Below the pieces are notes generated by a model, which was not told the DNA's origin, made no database searches, and saw only the letters and a list, made by a program, of their open reading frames with translations. Below are positions 5,731 through 45,147 of a stretch of DNA of 46,667 bases, one piece after another. Every line of letters starts with the position of its first letter. The first letter of the stretch is position 1. The DNA is from a virus. Both the position numbers and the translations under genes were made by a program. The stretch is taken from positions 1 through 46,667 of the IMG/VR virus record IMGVR_UViG_3300032893_000002. One strand, written 5' to 3'.

Positions 5731-6228
5731 CTACTGTTGCTGTTGCATCTTCGGTTGCGTCTCGTCGATTGCCTTTTGGAGCATATCAGCAAGACTTCCT
5801 TGTTCCTTTGCTTTCTGTTCTTTCTCTTTCATTTCGTCTTTCGTTGAACGAACCCGTTCCTTCTTGGGTGGAGCAGGAGGGACGTTCTTCTCGACGACGA
5901 CTTCTTCCTTTCCGACGCCAGCTTTCTTTGCGTCTCGACCGACTTGCTTTGCCAAGAGCTGATCTGCTTCCAAGGCCCATTCGAAAGCAGACTTCTTCGA
6001 TTCATCGTAGGTGCGAACCCAGATGACGATTCCGCCTTGCTTTCCAACAGCAATCTCGGGCCACTCCAGCGGTCCATGTCCTTGAAGAATCACCTTGCCG
6101 TCCCGTTCGCTCTGATCGAACGTCACATCCGGACGCAGTTCTTGCATCTTAGCCAGGAACTTCGCGACCATCGTGGTCTGCTTGGTTGCGATCACAGCGA
6201 CTTGGGTAGCAGTTTGATTGTTCGTCAT
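5731..6228 (-). CDS. hypothetical protein, paralog of 412..924 product
   Basis: Track ORF 5731..6294 trimmed to MTNNQTATQ... with TAAGGAGGATAAT SD; shared G(K/Q)xGIVI motif; Lys/Glu-rich C-terminus. Confidence 0.55.
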   Translation of the reverse strand: MTNNQTATQVAVIATKQTTMVAKFLAKMQELRPDVTFDQSERDGKVILQGHGPLEWPEIAVGKQGGIVIWVRTYDESKKSAFEWALEADQLLAKQVGRDAKKAGVGKEEVVVEKNVPPAPPKKERVRSTKDEMKEKEQKAKEQGSLADMLQKAIDETQPKMQQQQ

Positions 6229-6294
6229 ATTATCCTCCTTAAGGATAAAGGTTAGAGTTGCGTTGATGGTTGGGTTGCGAGAAACTTTTTGCAA

Positions 6295-12791: not shown

Positions 12792-13211
12792 TTGGATAAA
12801 GTAGTTGACAGAATTTATGTAGGCGATAATCTAGATCCTCATGAATTACGCGTTAGTAATTCGGAGCAGATTGGAGCAATATTGAATGTATGCGAAACAT
12901 TTGATCCTGCTCTAGACGTTGCATCTTTGCATATGCCATTTGCCGATTGCGCTCCAATTCCTACATACGAATTTCAAACTTGTATGTCGTGGCTTGAGCA
13001 ACAGTATCGACGATCAGACAGAAATATTTTTATTCATTGCCATTTAGGGATAAGTAGAAGTCCAACGATATGTGCTTCATTTATGTTTTTACAGAAGATT
13101 TCACCGACAATACAAGAAGCATTAGCTACGATTAAAGCAGCTAGACCAATCATAAATCCTCATCCTTTAACACTTCAGTCAGCTATTACGTATTTAGAGG
13201 AGATGAAATGA
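12792..13211 (+). CDS. CX5R-type (dual-specificity / protein-tyrosine family) phosphatase
   Basis: P-loop IHCHLGISRSPT = HC(X5)R(S/T) signature plus upstream Asp (PFADCAP); TTG start after GGGAGGAAAGATAA SD; size typical of minimal DUSP or RNA/polynucleotide phosphatases. Confidence 0.65.
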   Translation: MDKVVDRIYVGDNLDPHELRVSNSEQIGAILNVCETFDPALDVASLHMPFADCAPIPTYEFQTCMSWLEQQYRRSDRNIFIHCHLGISRSPTICASFMFLQKISPTIQEALATIKAARPIINPHPLTLQSAITYLEEMK

Positions 13212-13714
13212 AAACAGATGGACTCTGCGGAATTGAATGGTTTAAAGCAAATAAAGAACTTCAAAACGCGTCAAGAGAAAAGTGGGATGTTAGATTTTTG
13301 GAATTGGCTAAGTTTATTGCCAGTTGGTCTAAAGATCCTTCTACTAAGACTGGAGCCGTAATTGTTCGGCCTAATAAATCGGTTGCTTCTGTTGGGTTTA
13401 ACGGCTTCCCTACTAAGTTAATTGATTCCGAAAAAGATTATTCTAATCGAGATGTAAAGTATAGTAAGATCATTCATTGTGAAATGAATGCGCTTCTATT
13501 TGCGCGTGAACAAGTAACAGGATATACACTCTATACCTATCCTCTTGCTTCTTGCGAACGTTGTGCAGTTCATATGATTCAAGCCGGAATTACAAGATGT
13601 GTATTTCCAAAGATTCCACACGATCAACAAGAACGCTGGCAAGATTCAGTAAATAGGACAAAGACGTATTTAACAGAAGCAGAAGTTGACTGGCGTGAAG
13701 TAGATTTTGAATAA
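13208..13714 (+). CDS. dCMP (deoxycytidylate) deaminase
   Basis: Zinc-binding motifs HCEMNAL (H-x-E) and SCERC (C-x-x-C) at canonical spacing; length and layout of ComEB/dCMP deaminase family. Confidence 0.8.
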   Translation: MKTDGLCGIEWFKANKELQNASREKWDVRFLELAKFIASWSKDPSTKTGAVIVRPNKSVASVGFNGFPTKLIDSEKDYSNRDVKYSKIIHCEMNALLFAREQVTGYTLYTYPLASCERCAVHMIQAGITRCVFPKIPHDQQERWQDSVNRTKTYLTEAEVDWREVDFE

Positions 13715-17522: not shown

Positions 17523-18098
17523 ATGAGAAAAGGTGGTTGGATTACTACATATTCCGGCAAGAAGTTTTGGCCATTAGATCCAAAAGCTGAAGATATTTCT
17601 ATTTATGATATTGCGCATGCTTTATCTTTAATATGTCGATTCGGAGGACACTGCAGAAATTTCTATAGCGTAGCGCAGCATAGTATTCTCGGAGCGCAGC
17701 ATATTTTATTAAAAGAAAAAAGCAACGCGTTAGCAGCTTATGAATTTCTTTTTCATGATGCATCTGAAGCTTATCTATGTGATCTTTCGCGGCCAATTAA
17801 ACACGACTCTCTATTAGGTAGTTTATATAAAAAGGCTGAGAAAAAGTTGGAGCAAGCTATTGCAGAGAGATTTAATGTTAGCTATCCGCTTTCACAAATA
17901 TGTAAAGATACAGATATGAGTATGCTCTTAACAGAAGCTCGTGATTTAGGATTAGATACAACGGGCTGGATTGTTGCACCGCAAGATCGTTGTTTTGAAG
18001 ATAAAATTGTACCTTGGTCTCCTGTCGAGTCTGAACAAGGTTTTTTACGCATGTATGATTCTCTTTCTGCGACTTTGTTTATTCAAGCAGTAGTCTAA
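17523..18098 (+). CDS. HD-domain phosphohydrolase
   Basis: HD motif FLFHDASEAYLCD preceded by conserved His (IAHALSLICRFGGH) in the order expected for HD superfamily (YfbR-like nucleotidases). Confidence 0.55.
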   Translation: MRKGGWITTYSGKKFWPLDPKAEDISIYDIAHALSLICRFGGHCRNFYSVAQHSILGAQHILLKEKSNALAAYEFLFHDASEAYLCDLSRPIKHDSLLGSLYKKAEKKLEQAIAERFNVSYPLSQICKDTDMSMLLTEARDLGLDTTGWIVAPQDRCFEDKIVPWSPVESEQGFLRMYDSLSATLFIQAVV

Positions 18099-18116: not shown

Positions 18117-18647
18117 ATGGCCGAAAGAATGCAATTGCCCACTACGCGTCAAAGTATTGTTCATCATTTTGCTGTTGGCGAATATGAAGGTTATTTAACA
18201 GTTGGTTTGTATGAAACGGGACTTCCAGGCGAAGTATTTGTGAAGATGGTAAATAAAGATACAACAGTCTCAGGCTTTATGGATAGTTTTGGATTAGCCG
18301 TGTCACTTGCACTTCAGCATGGTGTTCCATTAAAATTACTTTGCGACAAGTTTAGCTATATTCAATTTGATCCAAAGGGAGAAACAGCGAATAAGAAACT
18401 TCCGACGGCGAAATCTCTTATAGATTATTTATTCAGATGGATGGATTTATACTTTATTAAAGGCGATGTCTCTGCGTTGGAAAATTATATTAAACCGGAA
18501 GTAAAGAAATCAATCAAGCACGTCGTTACAAAGTCTTCTGGAATAGGATCGGATGCGCCTCCCTGTAGACAGTGTGGAGAATTGATGCAGCCAAATGGAA
18601 GTTGTCATGTTTGTAAATACTGCGGAGAAACTAGTGGTTGTTCATAA
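18117..18647 (+). CDS. hypothetical protein with C-terminal zinc ribbon (176 aa)
   Basis: C-terminal CRQCG...CHVCKYCG; no other motif. Confidence 0.45.
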   Translation: MAERMQLPTTRQSIVHHFAVGEYEGYLTVGLYETGLPGEVFVKMVNKDTTVSGFMDSFGLAVSLALQHGVPLKLLCDKFSYIQFDPKGETANKKLPTAKSLIDYLFRWMDLYFIKGDVSALENYIKPEVKKSIKHVVTKSSGIGSDAPPCRQCGELMQPNGSCHVCKYCGETSGCS

Positions 18648-18655
18648 GGAGATAT

Positions 18656-19573
18656 ATGGCAGAAGTAGTAAAGAAAGAAGATGGGAAAGTAGCAGAAGTA
18701 AAATCTATTATAAGCGATAAGCCAGCTACTGCTACTATACAAAAGTCCGAAACTAAGTTAAGTGAAATTAAAGATGGTACTGCAGTAGCAAAGACATTTA
18801 AAGCTGAACGAGATCCAAAATCGACATACATCTATGCCGGTGTTCAGGAAGGTATGCGTGCTGCGACTGAAACTCCCTCCAATGCTAAACCAGTTGTCGA
18901 TGTTGTACCACAAGATACAGAAAAAATAGCTAAGAAAGTACAAAAATCAATAGTTCCAAAAGTCGAACAAAAGAAGAAGCCAGAAGTTCCAACATTGACG
19001 ATTGGTAAAGATATTTTCTCTGTCGATTTATCTGCATTGGCAGAGTATGTAGCATTCGATGTTGATGCGCATCGTTACTTTACGCAAGAGAATACATATA
19101 AAATTCTTGCACACCTTTCAAAACAACTGCCGAAAGGATCTAAAGTTGCAGATCTCGGAACTGCGTGTGGTTCCTCTGCGCTTGCCTTTGCATCAAATCC
19201 GGATGTTCAAGTATCTACTATTGATTCCAGGAAGTTGCTGCCACAAAACTTAAAGAATGCCTCTTCTCTTCCAAATGTATCTTTTATTCAAGGAGATATT
19301 GCAAACTATATTAGTATATATGCAGATGCTAAGATTATATATTTGGATGTTCATCCGCATGACGGCATTCAAGAAAGTAAAATATATAATGAATTAATTG
19401 CTAGCGAATTCAAAGGTATTTTAATTCTTGATGATATACATGCATTTGAAGGACTTAATTCGTTTTGGAATACAATTTCAAGGAAGAAGATTGACGCAAC
19501 AGAATATGGACATCATTCAGGAACAGGAATTGTCGTATTTTCTCCGACTGATTTAGATGTTGTTATTTCTTAG
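18656..19573 (+). CDS. class I SAM-dependent methyltransferase with N-terminal extension carrying a capsid-like peptide
   Basis: Rossmann motif I VADLGTACGSSALAFA, acidic IIYLDVH and ILILDDIH strands; ATAAGGAGATAT SD; N-terminal aa 49-76 KAERDPKSTYIYAGVQEGMRAATETPSN nearly identical to aa 125-152 of the putative capsid protein. Confidence 0.6.
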   Translation: MAEVVKKEDGKVAEVKSIISDKPATATIQKSETKLSEIKDGTAVAKTFKAERDPKSTYIYAGVQEGMRAATETPSNAKPVVDVVPQDTEKIAKKVQKSIVPKVEQKKKPEVPTLTIGKDIFSVDLSALAEYVAFDVDAHRYFTQENTYKILAHLSKQLPKGSKVADLGTACGSSALAFASNPDVQVSTIDSRKLLPQNLKNASSLPNVSFIQGDIANYISIYADAKIIYLDVHPHDGIQESKIYNELIASEFKGILILDDIHAFEGLNSFWNTISRKKIDATEYGHHSGTGIVVFSPTDLDVVIS

Positions 19574-20148: not shown

Positions 20149-20372
20149 TGAATCCATCTACACATCCTGAAAATTTTGATTTATGCCGTTATTGCGGTGA
20201 TCCTTATTGTGATAGATTAATAGAAAAATCAGATGGTAGTATTCGTTCAAATCACGATACGGGTTATAGATTTATACCCGCAAAACATATAGTAAAACCA
20301 TTTGCAACAAAATTTACAGCTCCTCTCAGAGATAAACATTTAATGCTTGCAAAACGTAATACTCTAAGTTGA
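20148..20372 (+). CDS. hypothetical protein with CxxC..C motif (74 aa)
   Basis: ATGA overlap with previous gene; CRYCGDPYC. Confidence 0.4.
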   Translation: MNPSTHPENFDLCRYCGDPYCDRLIEKSDGSIRSNHDTGYRFIPAKHIVKPFATKFTAPLRDKHLMLAKRNTLS

Positions 20373-20423
20373 TCACGTAATTCTCTTGACAAAGTTTTAA
20401 CTTTCCCTTATTTTCATTAGTAA

Positions 20424-20966
20424 ATGTCTCGCCTTCTTCTAAGTATCTGCGCTCTAATTTCTATCTCTTTAATTGTGCTCGCTCCTATTTTATTAGGAGA
20501 TGCGCATCCGCGTCATCATATATTTGGAGATACATTTGATGTTCAGCCCCTAATTAACGCGAGCGGGCAAGTCATCCAGATGAACATCAGTGTTTTTAGT
20601 GGAGGTCTTGTAAAAGGCTCTTACAACAGTAAGAAGTATGGCGGTATTTGTAACACAAATGCCCCACATTGTTATGGAACTGATGGGCTGGGCAATTGGC
20701 GTTTTCTTTTCACTGGCCAGCATTTTTGTGTTAATACTTGTACATATACAGCTACAGGCGATTTGATAGTAAATAAGCCGATTCAATTACCGGATGGTTC
20801 TACGACTCTGCAGCTTTACGCTATACTATATGGGACTTATGTCAGCGATTCAGGTGTTGTAAGAGATAACGTGATGGCATATTACAATTCATATACAGAC
20901 CCTGCAGTTGACAGCACGACAGCGCTTGCTTACGGCGGTCTAACAATAGTATTTCAGGATAATTAA
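20424..20966 (+). CDS. secreted or membrane-anchored hypothetical protein (180 aa)
   Basis: N-terminal hydrophobic helix LLLSICALISISLIVLAPILLG; Gly/Thr/Tyr-rich beta-type composition; TTGACA-like promoter upstream at 20386. Confidence 0.45.
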   Translation: MSRLLLSICALISISLIVLAPILLGDAHPRHHIFGDTFDVQPLINASGQVIQMNISVFSGGLVKGSYNSKKYGGICNTNAPHCYGTDGLGNWRFLFTGQHFCVNTCTYTATGDLIVNKPIQLPDGSTTLQLYAILYGTYVSDSGVVRDNVMAYYNSYTDPAVDSTTALAYGGLTIVFQDN

Positions 20967-21071
20967 GCAAAGGTGAGATTATGGCAACAAAATGGCCAAT
21001 CACAACGCATTGACGCATCCTTAACAATATAAAATTACAGCTTGACATTTGAACATACCTATATTATCTTT

Positions 21072-21108
21072 ACAAGTAAGTAATATTACTTGCTACTTAC
21101 TTGTACAA
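21072..21108. promoter_or_regulatory. nested palindromes upstream of terS
   Basis: ACAAGTAAGTA(21072-21082)...TACTTACTTGT(21094-21104) inverted repeat flanking self-complementary AGTAATATTACT, followed by TTGTACAA palindrome ending at the terS ATG. Confidence 0.4.
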
Positions 21109-21843
21109 ATGCGCGTTAAACTACAAGAACAGCCTATACAAGCGCGGCCGGTAAAGTCGCTCCCGGCTCCAGCCCATCCATCTGAGACAAGTAAAAGTAT
21201 AGAAAAAACTGAGAAAATAGATGCGTTATCTAAGAAATTAGGGTTAACGCCGAAGCAAAAACTCGCCGCAGACTATTACCTTCAAAACTTCAATAAGTAT
21301 AAAGCTGCGATTAAAGCAGGTTATTCAGAGTCTGTAGCAAACTGCGCAGAAGATAATATTTTTAGTGTTCCTGCTGTTCGCGACTACATCAATCAAAAAA
21401 TAAATCGACGCTTTAGAAAAGAAGAATTTTCAGCAGAACAAGTATTGATGCAGATTGAAAATGCGGCATCAGCAAATTTGCTTGACTATGGTAATGTTAC
21501 AGAAGATGGCGGATTTGAGTTGGATCTTACGAAAGTAGATAGATATTTAGCAGCAAACATTCAAGAGTACTACATCGATGCTGCAGGCAAACCTAAGATT
21601 AAGTTAATTGACAAGAAATGGGCACTTGAGAAGAAAGCTCAGCTATTGAAGATGTTTGAAACATCTCAAGGTCCAGGCGCCGAGAGCGAGCCTTTGACAA
21701 TTCAATCGCTCGATGCAATAGTACAGAAAGTTGTTACAAATAATACAATAAACCAAAATATTACAGTTAATGTTGGAGCAAGGGAAGCTCAGCAGTTTTC
21801 TCAAATTTTAGAAGGCAGCGATGATAGTTTATCTAATTCATAA
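21109..21843 (+). CDS. terS: terminase small subunit
   Basis: Trimmed from track ORF 21049..21843 to MRVKLQ...; contains the LTPKQKLAADYY motif typical of phage small terminase subunits; lies immediately upstream of terL with only a homing endonuclease between. Confidence 0.55.
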   Translation: MRVKLQEQPIQARPVKSLPAPAHPSETSKSIEKTEKIDALSKKLGLTPKQKLAADYYLQNFNKYKAAIKAGYSESVANCAEDNIFSVPAVRDYINQKINRRFRKEEFSAEQVLMQIENAASANLLDYGNVTEDGGFELDLTKVDRYLAANIQEYYIDAAGKPKIKLIDKKWALEKKAQLLKMFETSQGPGAESEPLTIQSLDAIVQKVVTNNTINQNITVNVGAREAQQFSQILEGSDDSLSNS

Positions 21844-22486
21844 TATACAAAACGAAAAAGTCTATGTTGGTATTACGAAGCATCAGTTTAAGCATAGATG
21901 GGATGAGCATTGTGATGCAGCATATAAGTATAATATGCAGTGGCATCTTTCAAATGCAATTCGTTTGTATGGAAAAGATTCTTTCTATCATGAAATCTTA
22001 GCTGTTGTTGCTACAGAAGAAGAAGCCAAGATATTAGAAAGGCTTTGGATTATAACTTTGCGTTCTTTTGATTCAGAATTTGGCTATAATATGACTTATG
22101 GAGGAGACGGCGTAAATCCGAGTTTTTTACGCGGAACTATCAGGAAAGAAATTTATGGAATTGAATCAGAAAAGCAAAGAGGCATAGCCATAAGTCTTGC
22201 AAAAAAAGGCAAACCAAGTTGGAAAAAAGGAACAACAAATATTGAACTTTATGGAGAAATAAAGGCTGCAAAAATTGCAGAGCAGGTATCAAAAACAAAG
22301 ACAGGTAAATCGAACATAAAACGAATAGGAAAGCCGGGTGCTCTTCTTGGAACTATTAGGAAATTAGCTTACGGAGAGCAATCCGAATTTGCAAGAGCAA
22401 GAGCTATAAGTGCAGCTAAAAAAGGAAAGCCTTCTCCCCGAAAAGGAAGAATCTTTCCGAAACAGATTGTAGCTGCATCATTATAA
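21821..22486 (+). CDS. GIY-YIG homing endonuclease with NUMOD-like C-terminal repeats
   Basis: N-terminal IYLIHNIQNEKVYVGIT...HRWDEH GIY-YIG core; repeated KKGKPSWKKGT / KKGKPSPRKG DNA-binding modules; paralog of 33779..34417; inserted between terS and terL. Confidence 0.85.
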   Translation: MIVYLIHNIQNEKVYVGITKHQFKHRWDEHCDAAYKYNMQWHLSNAIRLYGKDSFYHEILAVVATEEEAKILERLWIITLRSFDSEFGYNMTYGGDGVNPSFLRGTIRKEIYGIESEKQRGIAISLAKKGKPSWKKGTTNIELYGEIKAAKIAEQVSKTKTGKSNIKRIGKPGALLGTIRKLAYGEQSEFARARAISAAKKGKPSPRKGRIFPKQIVAASL

Positions 22487-22723: not shown

Positions 22724-22975
22724 ATGGGAATTTGCGTCATCACACATAATCAGGCAAAGAAGTGGGAAGATACAGACGTTAGGCCGAATTGTTCACATCA
22801 TTTTCATATATCTGCAAAACAGGCATATATTGCCGTAGGCGAAGATAATGCGAATTGGTTCGATGGCCCATCTTCAAGAGCAATAGTTTTTCATGATTGC
22901 GTATTAAGATATGAGTGGCAGGCTAGAAAAAGTATAGGGTTTAACGTTTTGCAGATGGTACCAATTAGAAAATGA
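22724..22975 (+). CDS. hypothetical protein (83 aa)
   Basis: ATG ORF whose ATG lies inside a TAGTATAAT motif; stop overlaps terL start. Confidence 0.4.
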   Translation: MGICVITHNQAKKWEDTDVRPNCSHHFHISAKQAYIAVGEDNANWFDGPSSRAIVFHDCVLRYEWQARKSIGFNVLQMVPIRK

Positions 22976-25908
22976 GTATATCCCCTAGAGATCGAAGAAT
23001 TGCGGATACAGTACTAGATCCAGTTAAGTTTGCTAAACTATACTTCGATATTGATTTGTGGGGAAAGCAGAAAGAGATTTTAAACTCAATTGCTGTTAAT
23101 CAACGTACGGCTGTTAAGAGTTGCCACTCAAGTGGAAAATGTGTTGCTGCAGATGAGGTTCTAACGTTAGCAGACGGTTCGAGAATAAAAGCTAAAGATC
23201 TTATTGGCAGAAGTTTTGCATTGCCTACATTAGATGAAGAAGGACATGTTGTTGCTGCAGCAGCAAAAGCAGAATTTAATGCAGTTGAAGAAGTATTTAT
23301 AATAACTACGGAATCCGGAAAGCAGATTGTAAGAAATGCGGAACACCCGCTTTGGCGCGGCGAACGGCTGCCGTGGAACTTAGGTGAGAAAGATACAAAA
23401 TTAACGTTCGGACCCGGCAAAAATTTTGGCGCAAAGAAATTCAATTTGCCAAAAAACATTAGTTGGAGTGATGTAAGAGGAACAATATTTCCCAGAGGAT
23501 GGACTTCAGTTGCGGAGTTAAAAGAAGGCGATTACGTAGCTATGGCTGCTTCATTGCCAGTTTTTGGCTCAGAAGAAATATGTGAAGCAGAATTAAAAAT
23601 TCTTGCCTATTTAATAGGTGATGGGTGCGTTTCTCAGGACGGGGCTCCTGGGTTTACTCAACAAGAAAATAAACAATTAGAAGAATTTCGTTTTTGTGTA
23701 GAAGCAATAGGCTGTAGGCTACATAGACATAACGATCTGGACTACTCAGTTTACGGACAAGGAACGAAACACGTAAAAAGAAAAAATCCTGCATCTGAAT
23801 TAGTAAGAAAGCATGGATTAGCTGGTAAAAAATCAAAAGATAAATTTGTTCCAGAAGTAGTGTTCTCTTTAACAAAAGAACAGACAGCAATTTTTTTATC
23901 GCGCTTATTTGCAACAGATGGTTGGGCAGAGATAAGGGGAATTTATTATTCTAGTACTTCATTTCGTTTAGTACAGGATATTCGAGAACTTCTTCTTCGT
24001 TTTGGAATTATTGCTGATATTAGCAAGAAAAGTACATTTTGGCTATATAAAGGAGTAGAAAAAACAGGCATAGCCTACGATCTTAGCATAAACAGAGCTG
24101 CCAATATAATAGCGTTTTGCGAAGAAATCGGAATTTACGGAAAAGAGCAACAGACTGTAAGAGCATTGGCAAATGCTCGAGAATCTATTGCACGCTGTTC
24201 TGCAGAACATTTTCACAAAACTGGAACTTCGGCACGAACAAAGACGAATTTTGGAAGAGGCCAGCATAGCAGTTTATGGAGAATGAAAACTGCTCCAAAA
24301 GGCACATACTGGGAAAAGATTAAATCTATTGAATATAGAGGTATAGAAGAAACAGTAGCAATAGAAGTTCCAGACTACGGCACGTTTTTAACACAATTTT
24401 GGGAGCATAATACATTTACATCAGCACTAGCAACACTTTGGTTTCTTGCGTCGCATCCAAAAGAAGCAATTGTAATTACAACTGCTCCTACTTATAATCA
24501 GGTTCAGAAGCAGCTATGGGGCGAAATTAAGTCGTTACTAATTAAGAGTAAGCTGAAGTGGCCAGAGCCATCGTTAACAGAATTAAGATTACATCCGAAG
24601 AGATATGCAACTGGATTAACAACATCTGTTACTAAAGGCGATGAGGGCGTTAAGTTTCAAGGTTTTCACGCCGATGACATTCTAGTAATATTAGACGAAG
24701 CTCCAGGCGTAGAGCCAAAGATTTGGGAAGCTATTGAAGGCGCACGAGCTGGTGGCAACGTAAAGATTCTTGCTATCGGAAACCCAACAATTGCTAGCGG
24801 ACCGTTTCACGATGCGTTTGTAAATAATCGTTCCGGCTGGAATTGCATATCAATTAGCGCATTTGACACACCGAACCTTCAAGGTATAGAATTAGAACAG
24901 CTTATTGATCCAAATCATCCAAAATATCTTACGGATGCGCAATTAAAAGAGAATCAGCAGAGTTTTTTAACAACAAGATTTTGGGTTAAAGAAAAGTATT
25001 TTGAATGGGGTCCAACACATCCTGCATGGGAGACTCGTGTTCTTGGCTGCTTTCCATCGCAGAGCGATGATGCTTTATTCGGGCTAATGTACCTAGAGAA
25101 AGCACGAGATAGTGATCTTAAAGCATCGCCAGCGGACAAAGTTGTAGCAGGATTAGATGTAGCTGGACCAGGAGAAGATGAAACAGCGTTAGTAATTAGA
25201 AAAGGTCCGGAGATTCTATATAGTAATGCTTGGGCAACTGCTGATCCGAGAGGCAAAGTTGTTGCGGCATTGAATCAATACAGAAGTGAGTTATCTGCTG
25301 TTAATGTGGATAAGTTAGGAATTGGATGGGGAATGTACACTCACTTAAAAGAGTTGGGATTCCCAGTTGTAGCTATTAATATTACAGAGACAAGTACTGA
25401 TCCGGAACAGTTTTTTAACTCACGCGCTGAATTTTGTTGGGGATTTAGACTTAGACTTCAACAAGGACAAGTAAGCGGCCTTCTAGATGAAAAGACAATT
25501 GGGCAATTAGCTGGAATGCGATTTAAGCAGAATGCTAGAGGACAAACAGAAATTGAATCTAAAGATGCTGCATTTAAACGCGGTGTACATAGTCCAGATA
25601 GAGCTGAAGCTGTTTTGTTAGCTTTCGCAGAGCGAAATAAATCATATAGCGCACTTGAGTATTACAAAGGAGTTATGAGTAGTATGGAGAAAGCACAAGC
25701 AGCTTTAATGATGAAGCCAGCAATGCCAGACAAACCAAAGGAATGTCCTACATGTCGAGCCGTTTGCGTTGTACAGCTTGCGAGTGGGTTTCGTTGTAAT
25801 CAGTGTGGATGTCAATTCGGCGGAAAGGGAAGTTCAATCGGACAACCTAATCAGCGTACAGAGTACTTACAAAAATTGGATGCTGGTAGACGTAACTTAT
25901 GGAAGTAA
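22972..25908 (+). CDS. terL: terminase large subunit, interrupted by an intein (exteins 22972..23139 and 24412..25908)
   Basis: Spliced sequence gives Walker A KSCHSSGK|TFTSALATLWFLA; Walker B ILVILDEAPG; C-terminal nuclease-like region and terminal CxxC cluster; intein flanked by Cys1 and His-Asn / +1 Thr. Confidence 0.85.
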   Translation: MSISPRDRRIADTVLDPVKFAKLYFDIDLWGKQKEILNSIAVNQRTAVKSCHSSGKCVAADEVLTLADGSRIKAKDLIGRSFALPTLDEEGHVVAAAAKAEFNAVEEVFIITTESGKQIVRNAEHPLWRGERLPWNLGEKDTKLTFGPGKNFGAKKFNLPKNISWSDVRGTIFPRGWTSVAELKEGDYVAMAASLPVFGSEEICEAELKILAYLIGDGCVSQDGAPGFTQQENKQLEEFRFCVEAIGCRLHRHNDLDYSVYGQGTKHVKRKNPASELVRKHGLAGKKSKDKFVPEVVFSLTKEQTAIFLSRLFATDGWAEIRGIYYSSTSFRLVQDIRELLLRFGIIADISKKSTFWLYKGVEKTGIAYDLSINRAANIIAFCEEIGIYGKEQQTVRALANARESIARCSAEHFHKTGTSARTKTNFGRGQHSSLWRMKTAPKGTYWEKIKSIEYRGIEETVAIEVPDYGTFLTQFWEHNTFTSALATLWFLASHPKEAIVITTAPTYNQVQKQLWGEIKSLLIKSKLKWPEPSLTELRLHPKRYATGLTTSVTKGDEGVKFQGFHADDILVILDEAPGVEPKIWEAIEGARAGGNVKILAIGNPTIASGPFHDAFVNNRSGWNCISISAFDTPNLQGIELEQLIDPNHPKYLTDAQLKENQQSFLTTRFWVKEKYFEWGPTHPAWETRVLGCFPSQSDDALFGLMYLEKARDSDLKASPADKVVAGLDVAGPGEDETALVIRKGPEILYSNAWATADPRGKVVAALNQYRSELSAVNVDKLGIGWGMYTHLKELGFPVVAINITETSTDPEQFFNSRAEFCWGFRLRLQQGQVSGLLDEKTIGQLAGMRFKQNARGQTEIESKDAAFKRGVHSPDRAEAVLLAFAERNKSYSALEYYKGVMSSMEKAQAALMMKPAMPDKPKECPTCRAVCVVQLASGFRCNQCGCQFGGKGSSIGQPNQRTEYLQKLDAGRRNLWK
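23140..24411 (+). mobile_element. intein (424 aa) with LAGLIDADG homing-endonuclease domain inside terL
   Basis: Begins CVAADEVLTLADGS (block A, Cys1), block B T..H (NAEHPLW), LAGLIDADG motifs LAYLIGDGCVS and LSRLFATDGWAE, ends ...FWEHN followed by Thr; in-frame with terL. Confidence 0.85.
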
Positions 25909-27112: not shown

Positions 27113-27868
27113 ATGTCAGAGAATCCGTTAAAGGTACTTCAACCGCGTCATGCTGAATTAAACATGTATGATGTAATGAAAGGTACAATTCAAAGATTTT
27201 TTGCTGTTGTTGCAACAGAGCCAATTACGTATTCAGGCGAGACGATCGAACCTAAACCCTTAATCGTCTCGCCTGATATATTCAGAGGTACAGCATGCCC
27301 AGAGATGTGCGGCGCGTGTTGTGTTCGCGGAACATTAGATTTTCTTCCTGGCGATCCTAGACCAAAAGAAGCTACACAAAGATTTGTAGAAGTAAATGGA
27401 AAGAAAATTGAGATTTGGTCGGATATGCAAGAAGATAACGCCGATAGATGGTGTCGGCATTTGAATTTGAAAAATGGACGATGTGGCATTCATTCCGAAG
27501 CATATTATCCTTGGTTATGTGATTTTGCATTAATCAATGTAAAACATTTTAAGGATAAGTATTGGCTTGGAACTACGAAATTTTCAAGAACATGGAATTT
27601 TAGAAAGATTACAGATACAGACGAAGAATTTAAAGCGCGGAAAGCTGCACATAAGCCCGGTGCGCTATGCAGCATAGAACCTTTTGAGCCAATATCTGAA
27701 CAGACGGTTGCTAATACAAGGAGAAAGCTGAGAGGACTAGAGAAGTGGATTAACCATTTCCAAATTGCGAATCGGATGAAAAGTATTATGGCTTGGGCAA
27801 ATATGGATCCGATTCCTACAAAGCCTTTATATCTAGGAATTAAATCAGAACGAGGAGTTTTAATTTGA
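27113..27868 (+). CDS. CxxCxxCC (YkgJ/FliB-like putative Zn/Fe-chelating domain) protein
   Basis: CPEMCGACC matches the CxxCGxCC signature of the YkgJ/FliB family; additional Cys/His downstream (WCRH, RCGIH). Confidence 0.4.
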   Translation: MSENPLKVLQPRHAELNMYDVMKGTIQRFFAVVATEPITYSGETIEPKPLIVSPDIFRGTACPEMCGACCVRGTLDFLPGDPRPKEATQRFVEVNGKKIEIWSDMQEDNADRWCRHLNLKNGRCGIHSEAYYPWLCDFALINVKHFKDKYWLGTTKFSRTWNFRKITDTDEEFKARKAAHKPGALCSIEPFEPISEQTVANTRRKLRGLEKWINHFQIANRMKSIMAWANMDPIPTKPLYLGIKSERGVLI

Positions 27869-29517
27869 GTAATACACCTGTCACCCCTGTCGAAAGAAAA
27901 GTTACAATTGTTGTATTAGCTAAGTACAAAGAAATTTTTCAAGGATTTGTTGAGTCAGTAGAGAAGATAGCTCCAAATTTTCAAAAAGTTTTAGTAGCTG
28001 ATGGAACAGAGGTACTTGAAGTATTAGAAGCTTTGCCAGCAAAAGCAAAAAGCACCTGGACAGTAATTCCTGGACCAGAGAAATTTGCTATGGCAGGGAA
28101 CGGAAATCTAGGACTTAAAGCTGTTCCTTCTGATAGCGATATACTATATGTTGGCGACGATGTTAGATTTCTACATGAAAAAACTGTAGAACGCTTACAA
28201 GAGTATGCTTATAGAGAACCAACTATTGGCATACTTTCTCCTAGATTATTAGGAAGAGCAAGCAATGCGTTAGCGAATCCTTCAGCAGACATTACGTTTA
28301 TTAGACCTATGGAAATGTGGTTTCCATGTGTTTATATCAAACGTGAACTGATTGAAAAAATAGGATATTTAGATGAAAGGTTTAATGATTTTGGATCTGA
28401 TGACCTTGACTACTGCATTCGTGCTCAGATTGCGGGCTATAAATTGGCTGCAACTTCGTTTGTTACTGTTCAACATGAAATGAGTGTTGAGGGAGGACCT
28501 ACAACATTCGTTAAGAAGTTAGGTGTTGCGCAGTGGCAACAGCAGCAAGCTAAAGCACTAGAAAAATTGCGTGAGAAATATGAAGTTAGCATTCCTATAT
28601 TCGAGCGCGCACTTAGATCAGGCGATAGTAAGCTGCTTGTTAAAAAGACGATTGAAGTTATAGATCAAACGAAGAAGAAGCCGCCTACACCAGAGGAAGC
28701 TAAGAAAATTCTTGAGAAACGAAGTATATACATCGCAACGCCCGCTTATGGCGGGATGATGACTGTTAATTATGTTACTTCGTTGTTAGGCATTAATGAT
28801 ATTTGTAGGAATTACAATGTTAAGCTTGAATATTCGTTCGTTTACAATGAAAGTTTAATTACGCGTGCTCGGAATAAGATGGTGTTCGACTATCTTAATA
28901 AGAGTAGCTGTACGGATTTTTTCTTCATTGATGCTGATATATCTTTTGATCCAAAAGATATTGTAAGTTTACTGTTTCATGACGAACCAATTATCGGATG
29001 CCCTTGCGTTAGGAAGAATTTAAGATTTGATCGTGTTGCTGCGGCTGTAAAACGGAACCCCGATAAAGAATATACAATTGATGAAATGGCTCGGATGTGT
29101 GGAGAATTCGTAGTTAATTTTCCTCCGACAGGCGCGCCTCAGATGATGAATTTGGGACAGTTGATAGAAGTACAGGATGTAGGAACCGGAATAATGCGTG
29201 TTAGACGTGAAGTCTTCGAGGAGATTGAGAAGAAATTTCCGGATCGCTATTACGTGCCAATGCAAGGTGAAGGCGAAGAAACTCAGCCGCATTATATGTT
29301 CTTTCAATCATGTATAGACGCAGAATCAGGAAAATTTAATCCAGGCGGATATCCGCATTACATTGCAGAAGATTTTGCATTTTGTAGATTAGCTCAGAAA
29401 GCAGGCTTTAAGATCTACTTAGCGCCTTGGATCAAAAGTGACCATATGGGCGCCCTCTTGTTTAAGGGAGACCTCGAGATGGTAGCCAAGGTGGGAGGAG
29501 GCCTCAGGCGCGCATGA
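27865..29517 (+). CDS. two-domain glycosyltransferase (GT2-like N- and C-terminal modules)
   Basis: N-domain: YVGDDVRF (DxD) and FGSDDLDYCIRAQIAGYKL; C-domain: FFFIDADISFDPKD (DxD) and AEDFAFCRLAQKAGFKIY; both pairs follow the GT2 pattern D-x-D ... ED-x-x-x-C/R-x-x-x-x-G-x-K-I. Confidence 0.55.
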   Translation: MSNTPVTPVERKVTIVVLAKYKEIFQGFVESVEKIAPNFQKVLVADGTEVLEVLEALPAKAKSTWTVIPGPEKFAMAGNGNLGLKAVPSDSDILYVGDDVRFLHEKTVERLQEYAYREPTIGILSPRLLGRASNALANPSADITFIRPMEMWFPCVYIKRELIEKIGYLDERFNDFGSDDLDYCIRAQIAGYKLAATSFVTVQHEMSVEGGPTTFVKKLGVAQWQQQQAKALEKLREKYEVSIPIFERALRSGDSKLLVKKTIEVIDQTKKKPPTPEEAKKILEKRSIYIATPAYGGMMTVNYVTSLLGINDICRNYNVKLEYSFVYNESLITRARNKMVFDYLNKSSCTDFFFIDADISFDPKDIVSLLFHDEPIIGCPCVRKNLRFDRVAAAVKRNPDKEYTIDEMARMCGEFVVNFPPTGAPQMMNLGQLIEVQDVGTGIMRVRREVFEEIEKKFPDRYYVPMQGEGEETQPHYMFFQSCIDAESGKFNPGGYPHYIAEDFAFCRLAQKAGFKIYLAPWIKSDHMGALLFKGDLEMVAKVGGGLRRA

Positions 29518-30250: not shown

Positions 30251-31843
30251 ATGGCACCGAAATCTATTTTTGGTTTTGGCGGAACTCCGAATGTAATATT
30301 TCGACAGCTTGCTCCAATTACAAATGCGGCAGCAAAATTAAAATCGTCGTTATATTCACCGCCTCAGGAAACTATTGATACGATCGTGGATGGGCTGTGG
30401 CCTAATCCGCTGCAGCCTATTACTCCGATTAGGCCTCCCGGAGCAGAACCGCTTAGTTGGCCTTTTAATTGGGGCCAGAATATTATGTATACTCCGCGCC
30501 AAGATGCGGAGTATTCTTCTGAGGAACTTCGAAGATTATCAAAGTATCCATTAGCTAGAATTTGTATTGAAAATAACAAGGATCTGCTCACTAGGATGCC
30601 TTGGAAGATTCAATTAAAGCCTCTTCCAGGAGAAACGAGTAAAGCTAGAGCTTCAAAAAGTAAGAATGATCCCAAGTTGAAGCAGCTGAATGATTTCTTT
30701 GCGCGTCCAAATTGGGAGCAAGATTGGCCAGAATTTATTCGCCCCGTATTAGAAGATATGCTCGTAATCGATGCTGCAAGCATATTTGTAGGCAGGGACA
30801 TAAAGACGAATAAAGTTACAGAATTGAGATGGGTAGAAGGTGCTTCGATCACAAGGTTAATCGACCAACATGGTTGGACACCTAAGCCGCCTAATCCTGC
30901 ATACCAGCAGAATTGGGAAGGATACCCTAGAATTGATTTAACAACAGACCAATTAGTATATAGACCTAGAAATATTTGTCCTCGCGGAACATATTCAAGC
31001 TACTTCTATGGTATGAGCCCAACAGAGCAGATAGCAAAAGAAATTCTAATTGGTATGGAACGTTTACAATACACATGGGATTTTTATTCGGAAGGATCAG
31101 TTCCAAACGCAATGTTATTTGCGCCAATTAATACTCCGCCTGATAAGATTAAAGAAGCACAACAGATTATTGATGCCGCATTAGCAGGCAAACTTGGTCC
31201 AAGACGCAGATTACAAGTAATGCAAGGATTTCAAGAAGAAGGAAAAGCAGAGCAATTGCATTTTCCAAAAGAACCTTCTATGGCAGACACATTTGATGAT
31301 CTGCATATTAGAAAAGTTTGTTTTGCATATGGAACAAGTCCACAGCGTTTACAAAGACAGATGAATAGAGCTGCTGCAGAACAAGCACAAGAATCTGCAG
31401 AAGAAGAAGGAACGTTACCTTGGTTGAAATGGATGAAAGGAACTGTAGATTATATCATCCAAGTTATAATGCAGGAACCAGATTACGAATTTGCATTTGA
31501 ACCATTTGTCGAGACAAATAGATTAAAACAAATGCAAGCAGATGAAATTGCTGTTCGTTATGGAATATATTCAATTAACGAAATTCGAGAACAGCATGGA
31601 GATGATCCGCGCCCAGAAGCAGAAGCCGATGAGATCGGAACAATGACTCCAAGTGGATTCTTGTCGATTACAGAACGTATTAAGCCGACAACAGGAGGCG
31701 GATTTGGTTCTGTAGCGAAGACTGTGAAGCCTAATGGCCGGCTTGCTTCGTTTGACGAACTTGAGTTTACTCCACACTGTAGCAGCCATGCATATAACTT
31801 TCATGGTTGTTTAGAATGTGACTATCTTAGAGATTCAAAATGA
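30251..31843 (+). CDS. putative portal protein (530 aa)
   Basis: Size, position (after terL, before protease/capsid) and acidic helical C-terminal region; no residue-level signature, so positional inference. Confidence 0.45.
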   Translation: MAPKSIFGFGGTPNVIFRQLAPITNAAAKLKSSLYSPPQETIDTIVDGLWPNPLQPITPIRPPGAEPLSWPFNWGQNIMYTPRQDAEYSSEELRRLSKYPLARICIENNKDLLTRMPWKIQLKPLPGETSKARASKSKNDPKLKQLNDFFARPNWEQDWPEFIRPVLEDMLVIDAASIFVGRDIKTNKVTELRWVEGASITRLIDQHGWTPKPPNPAYQQNWEGYPRIDLTTDQLVYRPRNICPRGTYSSYFYGMSPTEQIAKEILIGMERLQYTWDFYSEGSVPNAMLFAPINTPPDKIKEAQQIIDAALAGKLGPRRRLQVMQGFQEEGKAEQLHFPKEPSMADTFDDLHIRKVCFAYGTSPQRLQRQMNRAAAEQAQESAEEEGTLPWLKWMKGTVDYIIQVIMQEPDYEFAFEPFVETNRLKQMQADEIAVRYGIYSINEIREQHGDDPRPEAEADEIGTMTPSGFLSITERIKPTTGGGFGSVAKTVKPNGRLASFDELEFTPHCSSHAYNFHGCLECDYLRDSK

Positions 31844-32362: not shown

Positions 32363-33778
32363 ATGGCAGAGCAATTTAGAAAATTTGTCCAACTCATGAA
32401 GGTGGACGAAGAGAATCATATGACTTGGGGCATCGTTACGAGCGAAGTTCCCGATAAGGAAAATGAAATCTGCTCATATGCCGACGCTAAAAAAGCATAT
32501 AAAAAATGGTCTGAAGATTTTCTTGAAAAGACTACTGCCGCAGGGCAAGAACCGTCAATGGGTAATATTAGAATAATGCACGGCCTTCAGATTGGCGGAA
32601 AAGTAATTAAGTTGGAATTTAAAGATGAAGAGAAGCAAGTTTGGTTGGGAACGCAGCCTGCTACCGATGAAGTATGGAAGCTAATTAAAGGCGGGTACAT
32701 AACTGGGCTTTCTCACGGCGGGCGGTATCTCTGGAAGAAAGAAGTAGGAGAGTATACAAGATACGCACCAGAGATTTCAGAAGTGTCTTATGTTGATAAT
32801 CCGGCTAATCCTGATGCATCATTTGCTTATGTAAAGGCAGATGGTTCTATGGAATTGCGGAAATTTGCTAAAGATGTGCCTTCTGATCCAGAACTTGCAA
32901 AGCTACTTAAAGGTAGTGAGCCAGCTATACCGACAGAAGTAGGTTCTATGCCGACTGCGACAATGCCTGTGCCTGAAAAAGTAACTCCAGGAGTTAGCAC
33001 TTGTTCTTGCTCTTGTCCACAGTGTAAAGGCAGCAATTGTGGTAATTGTCAAGCAGAGGCTAAGTGTGAATCTTGTAAAACGGCTAAAGCAGCAGGATGT
33101 TCCTGCGGATGCGCGAGTTGTAAAGAAGGTAAATGCTCTAATTGCTCAGCCGAAACAAAATGTGAGATGTGCATGAGTGCAGGCGTTAGTACAGAAACAG
33201 GGTTTAACTACTACGATCTTGAAGGGCAAAAGAAGATGGCAGGTAAAGCTGTAAAGTATTTAGTTACTGACTCTGATGGGAAAGGCCATCTTCCATATAC
33301 GTCATCTAGCGGAACTCCTAGCAGACGCCTTTGTGGTGCTGCGTGGGCTGCTTTATTTTCTCCAGGCGGACATCGTGGAAATAAATACGAAGGTCCGGAC
33401 AAGGAGAAAGCAAAAGCGAAGCTAAAACAAGTGTATTCAAGTCAAGGATGGGATACTCCATCTGAGAAGACAGTTGCTGTAGAAGATATGTTAAAGGCTC
33501 TACTGGAAGACAGAATTGATAATGCAGTCCAAAGCAGATTTTATGGATTAACAAAACTCACAAAAGGATTATACAATGTTAGTAGATTTGCTGAAATAAT
33601 TGAGGCATTGAAATTTCTGTGTTTAACAATTAAAGACGAAGGAAATATAGAAGGAGGAGACGAATTTGATTTTAGTGTTTCTGCGGATTTATTGGAGGCA
33701 CTTGATGCGCTTCTCGGCTCGTTTTTAGATTATACAGAAAATCAAATTGCTGAAATTAGAAATGAACATATTTTATAA
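32363..33778 (+). CDS. prohead protease-like protein (S78/HK97-type N-domain) with metallothionein-like Cys repeats and helical C-domain
   Basis: NIRIMHGLQIGGKV...ITGLSHGG resembles the His...G-x-S-x-G layout of the HK97 prohead protease family; aa 214-270 contain two about 28-aa tandem repeats with 8 Cys each; AATAGGAGTAATTACAA SD. Confidence 0.45.
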   Translation: MAEQFRKFVQLMKVDEENHMTWGIVTSEVPDKENEICSYADAKKAYKKWSEDFLEKTTAAGQEPSMGNIRIMHGLQIGGKVIKLEFKDEEKQVWLGTQPATDEVWKLIKGGYITGLSHGGRYLWKKEVGEYTRYAPEISEVSYVDNPANPDASFAYVKADGSMELRKFAKDVPSDPELAKLLKGSEPAIPTEVGSMPTATMPVPEKVTPGVSTCSCSCPQCKGSNCGNCQAEAKCESCKTAKAAGCSCGCASCKEGKCSNCSAETKCEMCMSAGVSTETGFNYYDLEGQKKMAGKAVKYLVTDSDGKGHLPYTSSSGTPSRRLCGAAWAALFSPGGHRGNKYEGPDKEKAKAKLKQVYSSQGWDTPSEKTVAVEDMLKALLEDRIDNAVQSRFYGLTKLTKGLYNVSRFAEIIEALKFLCLTIKDEGNIEGGDEFDFSVSADLLEALDALLGSFLDYTENQIAEIRNEHIL

Positions 33779-35254: not shown

Positions 35255-37222
35255 ATGAGAATTAGCGATGAAACATATGTTCAGCGAACTTTGCTAGCAC
35301 GTGCAGCAGTAGCCGAGGCACTCAAAGATCCAAAAATTACAGATCTTTGTAAGCGTGCTAAGGAGCTGAGCCCAACCTCTCAAGACGAAGCTAAGAGATG
35401 GCGAATGGACCATCCACTAGTTAAAGCTGCGACTCGTGCGATTTTAAAGGCGCAGCATGAAGCTTTACAAAAAACAAATCCCCCGGGCGTAGGAACTTGG
35501 GTAGGATTTAACTTCTACGATTTGCGTGGTCCGGCTTATTTTCTATTCCCGATTCTAACGCCTTTCATTCAGATGATTGGTAAGCGTGGAAAAGTTAATG
35601 CTGGCGTCGGCACAGTAGCGCACTGGAAGGCATCTCGCAATCCAAACTCTACATATATTTATGCTGGCGTACAGGAAGGCCAGCGAAACGCAACATCAAC
35701 ACCAAACGAAATCGACTACCTAGCAACCTACAAAGAACTCGGCATGGAAGGTGGAAACACATTCACATCGCAGTGGGCTGGTGAAGGGTATACAGATAAC
35801 CTAGCAGACGAACATTTCCGTAACCTTGCTCGCCTTCGCTTGCAAGAAGAAATGATTACTCTACTCGGTAACTCTGGTACTGCTACTGGTAACCTTGGTT
35901 TCCAACTTGGGCAAGCTCCTAACGTTACTGCTGCTCTTGTAATATCTGACTCATACAATGTCCCAGCATCAGCTGGTTTTGCTGCAAATACAAACGTTTC
36001 AGGCGCAGTAGTCGCACTAACCGGTATGGGCATCAACCCAGGCGGACAAGGTGGATACGGCGCGCCCCCAACAGTAACAACTGGATTAACTCCGACTTCT
36101 ACACGTACAAACGTAGACGGAACAACTCTGGCTGTTAATGGTGGAACTTCGGCAATTTCGAACGTTTCGAATGCGGTTATGACTAACGCAACAGCAAAGT
36201 GGGTGAAATTCACTTGCGCTGCTGTTCAAGGCGCAGTTGCATATGCTTGGTATTTTTATACAGGAGCAACATCAACTGCTGCGGGCACAATTGGTCAGAT
36301 GACTCTAGGTGCAATTACACCAGCTCCATTTTACATTGCTGGTGCCAACCCAACAGGAACTCAGCTTGGCAACGCTGCAGGCTTAAGTACTGACTACAGC
36401 TCACAGTCGACTGACTTTGATGGACTATTAACATATGCATTCAAGAATGGTTATTGGAATGACATGTCTTATGGTTCTTTCACACCAGTAGGCAATGGGC
36501 AGGTCAAGGAAGTTGAAAACGATCTTGAATACCTGTGGAATAACTATCAGGCGCAACCTGATGCAATCTGGGTTTCTGGCGATGTCCGTCAGTCACTAGA
36601 TGCAGCAATTCTATACAGCTCGAGCGGTACTAACAGCTATATCTTCCAGGTATCTCAGGCGCAGCAAGCTACCGGCTTAACCGGTGGTTTCATTGTTACT
36701 GGATACAAGTCGAAATATAGTATTAATCCTGAAGGCGGAGCGGTAATTCCAATTAGAATTCACCCGATGATGCCTCCTGGGACAATGTACTATGACATCA
36801 ATAGCAATCCGTATCCGCATAGCAGAATTCCTGCTGTGAGAGAATTTTTCACACAGCGTGATTACTATGCAATTGAATGGCCGGTCGTAACACGTGAGTG
36901 GACCTATGGTACTTACATCCATGAGGTGTTGGCACACTACCTGCCATGGATTTCAGCAGTCAGAACTGGCATTGGACCATTCGTGGCTCCTTGCTGGATT
37001 GCTGCTGTTGTATTCGACGAGGATTTTGCAACTGGCGTGAAGACAAATATTGTTCGCAACTACTTGCTAAACTGGGAGAAGAACTCTGGTCTTGGCAAGA
37101 TTGTTGTTGGGCTGTATCGTCTACACGGCGAAGCTGTCAGCGAAGTTGTAAAGAAGAGCGCACTAGTAAAGAAAGTATTTACTCGTATCTTCACCGCCGT
37201 CTTAAACAAAGCAGAAAAGTAA
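35255..37222 (+). CDS. putative major capsid protein (655 aa) with N-terminal propeptide-like region
   Basis: Largest structural ORF after portal/protease/scaffold, higher GC and strong SD (AACAGGAGAATATAGCA) consistent with high expression; Gly/Thr/Ala-rich beta composition; positional inference only. Confidence 0.45.
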   Translation: MRISDETYVQRTLLARAAVAEALKDPKITDLCKRAKELSPTSQDEAKRWRMDHPLVKAATRAILKAQHEALQKTNPPGVGTWVGFNFYDLRGPAYFLFPILTPFIQMIGKRGKVNAGVGTVAHWKASRNPNSTYIYAGVQEGQRNATSTPNEIDYLATYKELGMEGGNTFTSQWAGEGYTDNLADEHFRNLARLRLQEEMITLLGNSGTATGNLGFQLGQAPNVTAALVISDSYNVPASAGFAANTNVSGAVVALTGMGINPGGQGGYGAPPTVTTGLTPTSTRTNVDGTTLAVNGGTSAISNVSNAVMTNATAKWVKFTCAAVQGAVAYAWYFYTGATSTAAGTIGQMTLGAITPAPFYIAGANPTGTQLGNAAGLSTDYSSQSTDFDGLLTYAFKNGYWNDMSYGSFTPVGNGQVKEVENDLEYLWNNYQAQPDAIWVSGDVRQSLDAAILYSSSGTNSYIFQVSQAQQATGLTGGFIVTGYKSKYSINPEGGAVIPIRIHPMMPPGTMYYDINSNPYPHSRIPAVREFFTQRDYYAIEWPVVTREWTYGTYIHEVLAHYLPWISAVRTGIGPFVAPCWIAAVVFDEDFATGVKTNIVRNYLLNWEKNSGLGKIVVGLYRLHGEAVSEVVKKSALVKKVFTRIFTAVLNKAEK

Positions 37223-38026: not shown

Positions 38027-38040
38027 GATTGAAAGCGAAA

Positions 38041-38908: not shown

Positions 38909-38922
38909 AAAGGCAACCTGTC

Positions 38923-41102: not shown

Positions 41103-41103
41103 A

Positions 41104-42197: not shown

Positions 42198-42205
42198 GGA
42201 GACGA

Positions 42206-44775: not shown

Positions 44776-44783
44776 GAGAAAAT

Positions 44784-45137: not shown

Positions 45138-45147
45138 TGAGGATTCA

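Follow-up and report, generated by a model that had tools for sequence, protein, structure and literature searches.

We found that a segment of about 29 residues from the major capsid protein (MCP) of a virus recurs in two unrelated kinds of non-capsid protein, namely in the disordered N-terminal extension of a methyltransferase (MTase) and in the linker of proteins that combine a Zn-ribbon with a MerR-type helix-turn-helix (HTH) domain. The MTase and the MCP are both encoded in IMG/VR virus record IMGVR_UViG_3300032893_000002, of which positions 1 to 46,667, counted in nucleotides (nt), were analysed and are called the window in the following. The explanation that we tentatively favour, while granting it somewhat less than an even chance, is that the segment represents a portable, selectively maintained short linear motif (SLiM), which docks its carriers by mimicry of a capsid element. 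Limited literature searches gave no account of a capsid-protein segment that serves a second time, as a conserved module, in non-structural proteins of phages, and to our knowledge a signal for targeting or regulation that originates from the shell protein has not been described.

BLASTP comparison of the 305-residue MTase with the 655-residue MCP gave one significant local match (22 of 42 identities, E=5e-11), in agreement with a preliminary description of this DNA, which had reported the peptide similarity and its location. Residues 49-76 of the MTase read KAERDPKSTYIYAGVQEGMRAATETPSN (nt 18800-18883), and residues 125-152 of the capsid open reading frame (ORF) read KASRNPNSTYIYAGVQEGQRNATSTPNE (nt 35627-35710). 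Counted from F48 in the MTase and W124 in the MCP, the two 29-mers are identical at 20 of 29 residues. Their uninterrupted identical core, STYIYAGVQEG, comprises 11 residues rather than the 13 reported earlier. A six-frame scan of the window revealed no third copy of the peptide.

Such a match is uncommon in this DNA. Among the 235 stop-to-stop ORFs of at least 60 residues in the window, an all-against-all BLASTP returned six pairs with E<1e-3, four of which are ordinary paralogues; the MTase and the MCP form one of the two pairs in which otherwise dissimilar proteins share a short local match. The other pair consists of the minus-strand ORFs 5731-6294 and 412-1020, whose function is unassigned and which share a 47-residue segment with 47% identity (E=2e-10). 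Pfam gives no match for either ORF, and they could represent either a second shared module or distant paralogues.

A hidden Markov model (HMM) of the 29-mer, which was built to score capsid and non-capsid copies, assigned 72-78 bits to capsid proteins, 60-64 bits to the copies in HTH proteins and 57-58 bits to the MTase copy, while the best unrelated ORF remained below 10 bits. By this measure the module is either present or absent, and decayed copies were not seen. Degenerate DNA patterns for YIYAGVQEG..R[ASP]AT had no match in IMG/VR and the JGI metagenomes, in collections without the window's own contig, and the general YIYAGVQEG pattern retrieved from the same collections capsid genes and chance out-of-frame matches, nothing else. 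A host search in genome contigs produced one chance match only.

The HTH proteins came to light when the MTase extension was compared by phmmer with 1.84 billion representative proteins; the single match was P0137. This protein of 277 residues is composed of a Cys4 Zn-ribbon, a linker that holds TWKAVRAPNSTYIYAGVQEGQRAATSTPEH, and a MerR_1 HTH domain. Of its diverged orthologues, P0138 carries HWKAQRNPNSDYIYAGVQEGQRSATESPT and P0139 carries NWKAKRAPNSDYIYAGVQEGMRAATSTPEY at the same linker position. The module is thus found mid-protein, between the Zn-ribbon and HTH domains, in three (P0137, P0138, P0139) of the ten members of this family in the database, and the linker flanks that surround it cannot be aligned among the carriers. 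The remaining seven members lack it; decayed relics of the module, which had been suspected by eye in other family members, were ruled out, as the 29-mer HMM found no match there. We also considered whether the MTase extension is homologous to the HTH linker outside the peptide, and the comparison gave no support for this. In loci L005, L008 and L009 the HTH gene lies immediately upstream of the small terminase gene, in a synteny like that of the window. The window itself contains no HTH-family gene, and tblastn with the HTH family finds in it only the two peptide copies. P0139 and the capsid homologue P0022 probably belong to one phage; for each, the longest contig on record measures 22,447 bp. 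The presence of the module in this third unrelated family lends further weight to the general idea of the preliminary description that a non-capsid protein carries a capsid-related signal.

Two of the HTH carriers show a further peculiarity. P0137 (residues ~96-145, locus L004) and P0138 (residues ~131-185, locus L008) contain, after the peptide, an extra Cys/His-rich insert of about 45 residues with the pattern …C.MPEHG.C…LG.SSD.DI..FGNGWH.R…, which is 56% identical between the two proteins, is not present in P0139 and has no match in the window.

The copies have been separate for long enough to saturate their synonymous sites, and the peptide has nevertheless been kept. Substitution counts according to Nei-Gojobori gave, for the MTase and MCP copies, 16.5 synonymous differences (Sd) at 20.7 sites (proportion pS 0.80) and 16.5 nonsynonymous differences (Nd) at 66.3 sites (proportion pN 0.25), at a nucleotide identity of 62%. 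The three HTH copies among themselves show pS values of 0.58-1.0 and pN values of 0.12-0.24, and the MTase copy differs from any other copy with pS 0.59-0.80 and pN 0.19-0.26. In the HTH carriers, 21-25 of the 29 peptide residues are identical, compared with a whole-protein identity of 48-52%. These data bear out the earlier statement that the copies diverged at synonymous positions and do not stem from a recent DNA duplication. Gene conversion between the capsid and MTase copies is ruled out, because synonymous sites are saturated within one genome.

Purifying selection on the peptide, which had also been proposed, is indicated by the contrast of pS and pN as well as by the residue pattern. 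All four non-capsid copies keep K125, A126, R128, P130, S132, Y134-G142, R144, A146, T147 and P150 (MCP numbering), and every residue that is invariant in the capsids is retained except W124, which is F in the MTase. At positions 134-140 the four non-capsid copies are identical while the capsids vary. Conversely, T127, N145, N/D151 and E152 are near-invariant in the capsids and changed in all four non-capsid copies; N145, for example, occurs in 112 of 119 capsids and is replaced by A, A, A and S in the four copies. As is typical for SLiMs, the module forms an island of purifying selection and is found again in proteins that are not related to each other (the O-MTase and the Zn-ribbon/MerR-HTH proteins), and it lies within a disordered, fast-evolving region, as seen in the confidence profile of the MTase model, in a cassette swap in the MTase gene and in the unalignable HTH flanks.

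In the MTase, the catalytic domain (residues ~110-305) is predicted by AlphaFold2 (AF2) with a predicted local distance difference test score (pLDDT) above 90. The first ~105 residues are disordered, with pLDDT values below 50 for residues 6-93, including the module. This extension is translated, because the ATG at 18656 is preceded by a conserved AAGGAG Shine-Dalgarno sequence and the first eight residues, M[AT]EVVKKE, are kept in relatives whose extensions differ. An identical protein, P0121, is recorded for two contigs from two source collections, which argues against a misassembly. Among the 16 MTase homologues found, only this identical protein contains the peptide, and many homologues have no extension at all, among them the one that a 176-kb IMG/VR contig from the same phage group encodes. 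The closest relative, L001, is 92-96% identical to the window in the flanking nucleotides, but blastn shows that positions 18680-18970 are replaced there by 189 unrelated nt; the extension thus behaves as an exchangeable cassette. Apart from this cassette, the window and L001 differ in a divergent region (20274-21022), in a homing-endonuclease gene and in an intein. No matches were found when the rest of the extensions was searched for copies of other genes.

The ease of this exchange raises the question of whether the module is a functionless passenger, that is, a capsid-gene fragment that was dropped into tolerant linkers by illegitimate recombination and whose likeness to the capsid reflects chance or recent transfer. 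Hypervariable linkers, cassette exchange between near-identical genomes, the lack of the module in most homologues and the confinement of the MTase copy to one lineage are all in line with this idea. Saturated synonymous sites, together with few replacements and, apart from W124, none at capsid-invariant positions, speak against it, as do the occurrence of the same fragment with the same boundaries in two unrelated proteins, the lack of decayed intermediates in the HMM search, and the fact that the rest of the extensions is not derived from other genes. We consider a passenger very unlikely.

The preliminary description had further suggested that the MTase protects or modifies incoming DNA. 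This finds no backing in the enzyme itself, since Pfam, PDB profile and Foldseek searches assigned it neither to a DNA MTase family (N6_N4_Mtase, MethyltransfD12, DNA_methylase) nor to a DNA-MTase fold neighbour. Pfam gave weak generic matches to Methyltransf_31 and Methyltransf_25, the PDB profile search led to O-MTases, and the top Foldseek matches were caffeoyl-CoA O-MTase-like proteins, TrmR, MeT1 and fibrillarin. Weak sequence matches and fold neighbours hence point in the same direction, to caffeoyl-CoA/COMT-type O-MTases, TrmR, MeT1 and MycE, and the homologue P0125 bears the source name 'O-methyltransferase YrrM'. O-methylation of a sugar or small molecule would be a more natural guess for its role, because head genes alternate with numerous genes of glycan synthesis in the window. 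Immediately upstream of the MTase gene are genes for a TSCPD-domain protein with a C-terminal Cys cluster (18117-18647, +) and for a YfbR-like (HD) 5'-deoxynucleotidase-like protein (17523-18098, +), and a dCMP deaminase is encoded at 13208-13714. The MTase gene is therefore situated where a nucleotide-metabolism block meets the packaging module.

The source of the module, the 655-residue ORF, is identified as an HK97-fold MCP by its A and P domains and its spine helix, by the order of the head genes (portal at 30251-31843, S78-like protease at 32363-33778, then the MCP) and by tblastn, which links it to the annotated 'major capsid protein' of Arthrobacter phage Mufasa8. A PDB profile search with the capsid family returned no relevant match, and Pfam gave nothing for the capsid protein at E<=10. 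Across 119 homologues, conservation is about 0.5 for residues 1-80 and then 0.86-0.97 for residues 81-220, where the protein is best conserved; the module (124-152) sits in the middle of this block, beginning some 45 residues after the switch from variable to conserved sequence at residue ~78-81. The distant MCPs of Brevundimonas phage Polewnik and of Mufasa8 align through the module, and the Mufasa8 protein retains it without having the N-terminal helical region. In the model of the MCP, helices occupy residues 5-73, a long helix at 181-204 corresponds to the spine helix, and residues 113-186 have pLDDT values below 50; the module falls between an N-arm-like block and helix 181-204. AlphaFold is known to predict E-loops and N-arms poorly, because they fold via inter-subunit contacts (10.1101/2022.09.09.507160). 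By fold topology, the module may be placed in the E-loop region, as it precedes the spine helix, follows the N-arm and is poorly predicted in the monomer. The MCP additionally has a C-terminal extension of about 75 residues (580-655, nt 36992-37222, +), which is confidently helical, starts at the conserved Cys580 and shows a conservation of about 0.4. It is present in homologues of ~650 residues and absent from those of ~550-580 residues, and could be a scaffold-like or decoration domain.

This location bears directly on the mechanism that had been proposed initially, in which the segment marks the boundary of a propeptide of ~125 residues and serves as a prohead-protease site or as a capsid-targeting sequence (CTS) of the T4/P1 type, so that the MTase is loaded into the head, processed and ejected with the DNA. 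Several observations would suit this scenario: the peptide lies within an N-terminal extension, the window encodes a prohead protease-like protein, the carrier genes adjoin the packaging and head module, and the recurrence in a second protein is what a shared signal would predict. Moreover, N-terminal signals of up to 30 residues send T4 IPIII and P1 DarB to heads (PMC9024508). The module, however, is internal to the conserved capsid core, well past the switch, and the Mufasa8 homologue, which has no delta-like domain, retains it. If a delta-like domain is removed in this family, the conservation profile suggests that the junction likely lies near MCP residue 75-80. Cleavage at the module itself would also strip the near-invariant block 81-123, and in the HTH carriers it would part two folded domains. 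About 20 specified positions in 29 residues far exceed the need of a protease site, and known cleavage sites are much shorter and less specific than this motif. In addition, the module starts at residue 48 of the MTase and not at the extreme N-terminus, known targeting signals have scaffold or core as their binding partner and are dissimilar from the capsid protein, and the enzyme is not DNA-MTase-like. Encapsidation of the MTase is possible, but we regard the protease or targeting scenario as quite unlikely. The observation in the preliminary description is thus solid, while the specific mechanism that was attached to it is mostly not supported.

Docking by capsid mimicry, the explanation that we prefer, draws on the ~20 specified positions of the module, on its source in the assembly-dependent capsid core, and on its two unrelated disordered-linker carriers beside packaging and head genes. 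A motif of about 29 residues, [WF]KAxRxPxSxYIYAGVQEGxRxATx[TS]P, would have been copied from the most conserved, assembly-dependent part of the MCP, between the N-arm and the spine helix, and put into linkers that are disordered and hypervariable, in two or more non-capsid proteins without relation to each other. These are the O-MTase-like enzyme and the Zn-ribbon/MerR-HTH protein, whose genes closely precede the terminase and head genes. The copy would then bind the surface that the capsid element itself binds. One candidate for this surface is a neighbouring capsid subunit in the (pro)capsid lattice, which could be contacted via beta-strand addition; the fact that the most conserved capsid region is not modelled in the monomer suggests that this region folds through inter-subunit contacts. 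The second candidate is a factor that binds or modifies the capsid element. Binding to either partner might tether an enzyme or a DNA-binding protein to assembling heads, and the outcome could be surface tethering, encapsidation, or regulation by competition or as a pseudosubstrate. A more far-reaching version, which is possible but doubtful in our view, is that the motif acts as an address tag of this clade of large uncultivated phages: it could be a strand or hairpin that mimics a capsid subunit and occupies unfilled lattice sites at the portal vertex or in the procapsid, or a non-reactive pseudosubstrate, with N145 replaced, that couples packaging and regulatory proteins to capsid maturation.

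Several points weigh against docking by mimicry. Only four non-capsid copies are known, in two families, and they may go back to one or two acquisition events, because A or S stands at position 145 in all of them and M143 is found in both the MTase and P0139. The MTase copy occurs in a single lineage whose closest relative lacks the module. Its divergence may have accumulated while the module resided in another protein, and selection in the MTase context itself is therefore not demonstrated. Since most HTH and MTase homologues do without it, the module is dispensable. Capsid subunits, furthermore, normally fill every lattice site for this element, so that a free mimic would depend on a special place or time to bind. 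Comparison with HK97 gp5 does not fix the exact structural element either: hhalign gave no significant result for the MCP, a local alignment pairs TVAHWKASR with HK97 TIAHWVQASR at a score that 1 of 300 shuffles reaches, and a global alignment is not significant. Two registers compete, so that the module is not assigned to a particular strand or loop tip.

The replacement of N145 in all four copies, with retention of the neighbouring invariant residues, could also indicate a different kind of interaction. The capsid segment would in this case be the putative recognition site of a capsid-modifying enzyme, such as a glycosyltransferase (GT) or a cross-linking activity, that acts at or near N145, and the copies would serve as pseudosubstrates or enzyme-docking peptides that bind unmodified. 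As a consequence, the O-MTase might be recruited to a glycan-tailoring complex, or HTH activity might be coupled to capsid supply. The abundance of glycan genes in the window and their interleaving with head genes, an arrangement that is also found in related contigs, would fit such a function, as would the resemblance of the MTase fold to the sugar and small-molecule O-MTases MeT1 and MycE. An N-glycosylation sequon N145-A-T was considered as the modified site and is weakened, as the N-x-S/T pattern is not conserved: 32 of the 119 capsids have I, L or V in place of T147. The common loss of N145 may moreover reflect shared ancestry instead of four independent events, and N145 is not singled out, as T127, N/D151 and E152 are changed in all four copies, too. 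On this evidence we consider a pseudosubstrate unlikely.

Differences from the capsids at four near-invariant positions might alternatively be expected of a non-activating ligand. By analogy with known sensing of capsid peptides, the copies could be decoys or antagonists that titrate or blunt a host factor or immune sensor, for which the most conserved part of the capsid would be a good target. The Lit protease together with EF-Tu senses the Gol peptide of phage T4, which comprises about 29 residues in the N-terminal part of gp23, and the copies described here are of similar length. We know of no case in which Gol is duplicated in other phage proteins. There is no obvious rationale for placing a decoy in the tail of an enzyme or in the linker of a DNA-binding protein, and we regard this possibility as highly improbable.

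The features of the window that bear on the module are compiled in the table below.

Table. Location of the two module copies, their carrier genes and associated head and packaging genes in the window.
Feature	Description	Position	Strand	Basis
Capsid-module copy in MTase	aa 48-76, FKAERDPKSTYIYAGVQEGMRAATETPSN	18797..18883	+	BLASTP against MCP and 29-mer HMM score
Original module in MCP	aa 124-152, WKASRNPNSTYIYAGVQEGQRNATSTPNE	35624..35710	+	Near-invariant in 119 homologues
MTase	Class I S-adenosylmethionine-dependent O-methyltransferase-like protein, 305 aa	18656..19573	+	Weak Pfam, PDB profile, AF2, Foldseek
Replaceable cassette	291 nt, encodes most of the disordered extension including the module	18680..18970	+	blastn against L001
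Small terminase		21049..21843	+	Pfam Terminase_2
Prohead protease-like protein	Long C-terminal region	32363..33778	+	Weak Peptidase_S78 / S78_2; PHROG head maturation protease families
MCP	HK97 fold, 655 aa	35255..37222	+	Fold, gene order, homology to annotated MCP

The packaging and head region contains several mobile elements. A 978-residue ORF that follows the small terminase gene (22972-25908, +) is probably the large terminase, by position only. It harbours a LAGLIDADG intein at ~23129-24409 (PF14528, E=7.7e-15), which is missing from the otherwise 92-95% identical 554-residue ORF of L001; the versions in L008 and L009 also bear an intein. Two GIY-YIG homing-endonuclease paralogues with 49% identity over 99 residues are inserted in this region. 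One of them (21821-22486, +) is located between the small and the probable large terminase and is absent from L001, and the other (33779-34417, +) is located between the prohead protease and a 243-residue protein just upstream of the MCP (34439-35170, +). The latter protein has no family match, and its N-terminal half is rich in His (HH/HxxxH repeats); by its position it could be a scaffolding or metal-binding head protein.

Glycan genes are found inside and after the head module (27865-29517, + and 38011-46530, +). A 550-residue GT-like protein is encoded between the probable large terminase and the portal, and the region downstream of the MCP encodes a GT2 protein and a second, weak GT2-like match, an NAD epimerase/dehydratase, a C-methyltransferase (PF08484), a cupin, a PLOD-type GT (PF25342) and two FN3-like ORFs. 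Similar glycan genes follow right after the terminase in L008 and L009. This gene set suggests that the virion is glycosylated.

If the module docks proteins on capsids or on capsid-handling enzymes, it would represent a capsid-derived signal that is distinct from both scaffold-dependent targeting and encapsulin peptides, and would provide a ready-made 29-residue tag to load or decorate HK97-fold shells. Disordered linkers of phage proteins would then be slots for functional peptides that are swapped between genomes. Residues 124-152 would also be marked as a key interaction element of an abundant, uncharacterised capsid family.

Encapsulin cargo-loading peptides are a precedent for a short, conserved, disordered peptide that brings enzymes to an HK97-fold shell. 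These peptides differ from the module in that they are terminal, about 10 residues long, bind an interior pocket and are unrelated to the shell sequence. The resemblance to Gol lies in a major-capsid segment of about 29 residues that would act alone as a ligand. The signals of T4 IPIII and P1 DarB, the latter in its N-terminal 30 residues, are similar to the MTase copy as short peptides in the N-terminal extension of a non-structural protein (PMC9024508). They also share with it a large phage that has a prohead protease and, possibly, use by several cargo proteins. Known CTSs, however, are located at the extreme N-terminus, bear no likeness to the capsid protein and act via scaffold or core, and those of T4 are cleaved off. 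The module, in contrast, is a copy of a capsid segment that starts at residue 48 of the MTase and lies mid-protein in the HTH carriers, and its targeting function is hypothetical.

A closer parallel for one short motif in unrelated proteins is the C-terminal helix-and-hook (RIIK) motif of the 80alpha scaffolding protein (SP) and of SaPI1 CpmB, whose ~16 residues bind one site on the HK97-fold capsid protein, for which the carriers compete (PMC5644958). That motif, unlike the module, is a C-terminal helix derived from the scaffold, and there is both structural and genetic proof of it. In a thermophilic Oshimavirus, the N-arm of Dec and a portal-vertex protein join the sheet that the E-loop builds with the N-arm of a neighbour; at the portal vertex, penton contacts are left free and extra strands are recruited (PMC12407722). 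Extended arms of non-capsid proteins hence dock there by strand addition, as we propose for the module, but they are not copies of capsid sequence and belong to dedicated structural proteins rather than to enzymes or regulators. The phenomenon described here is broader than it first appeared, and the module takes its place beside the known capsid-docking and targeting peptides as a variant with a putative function.

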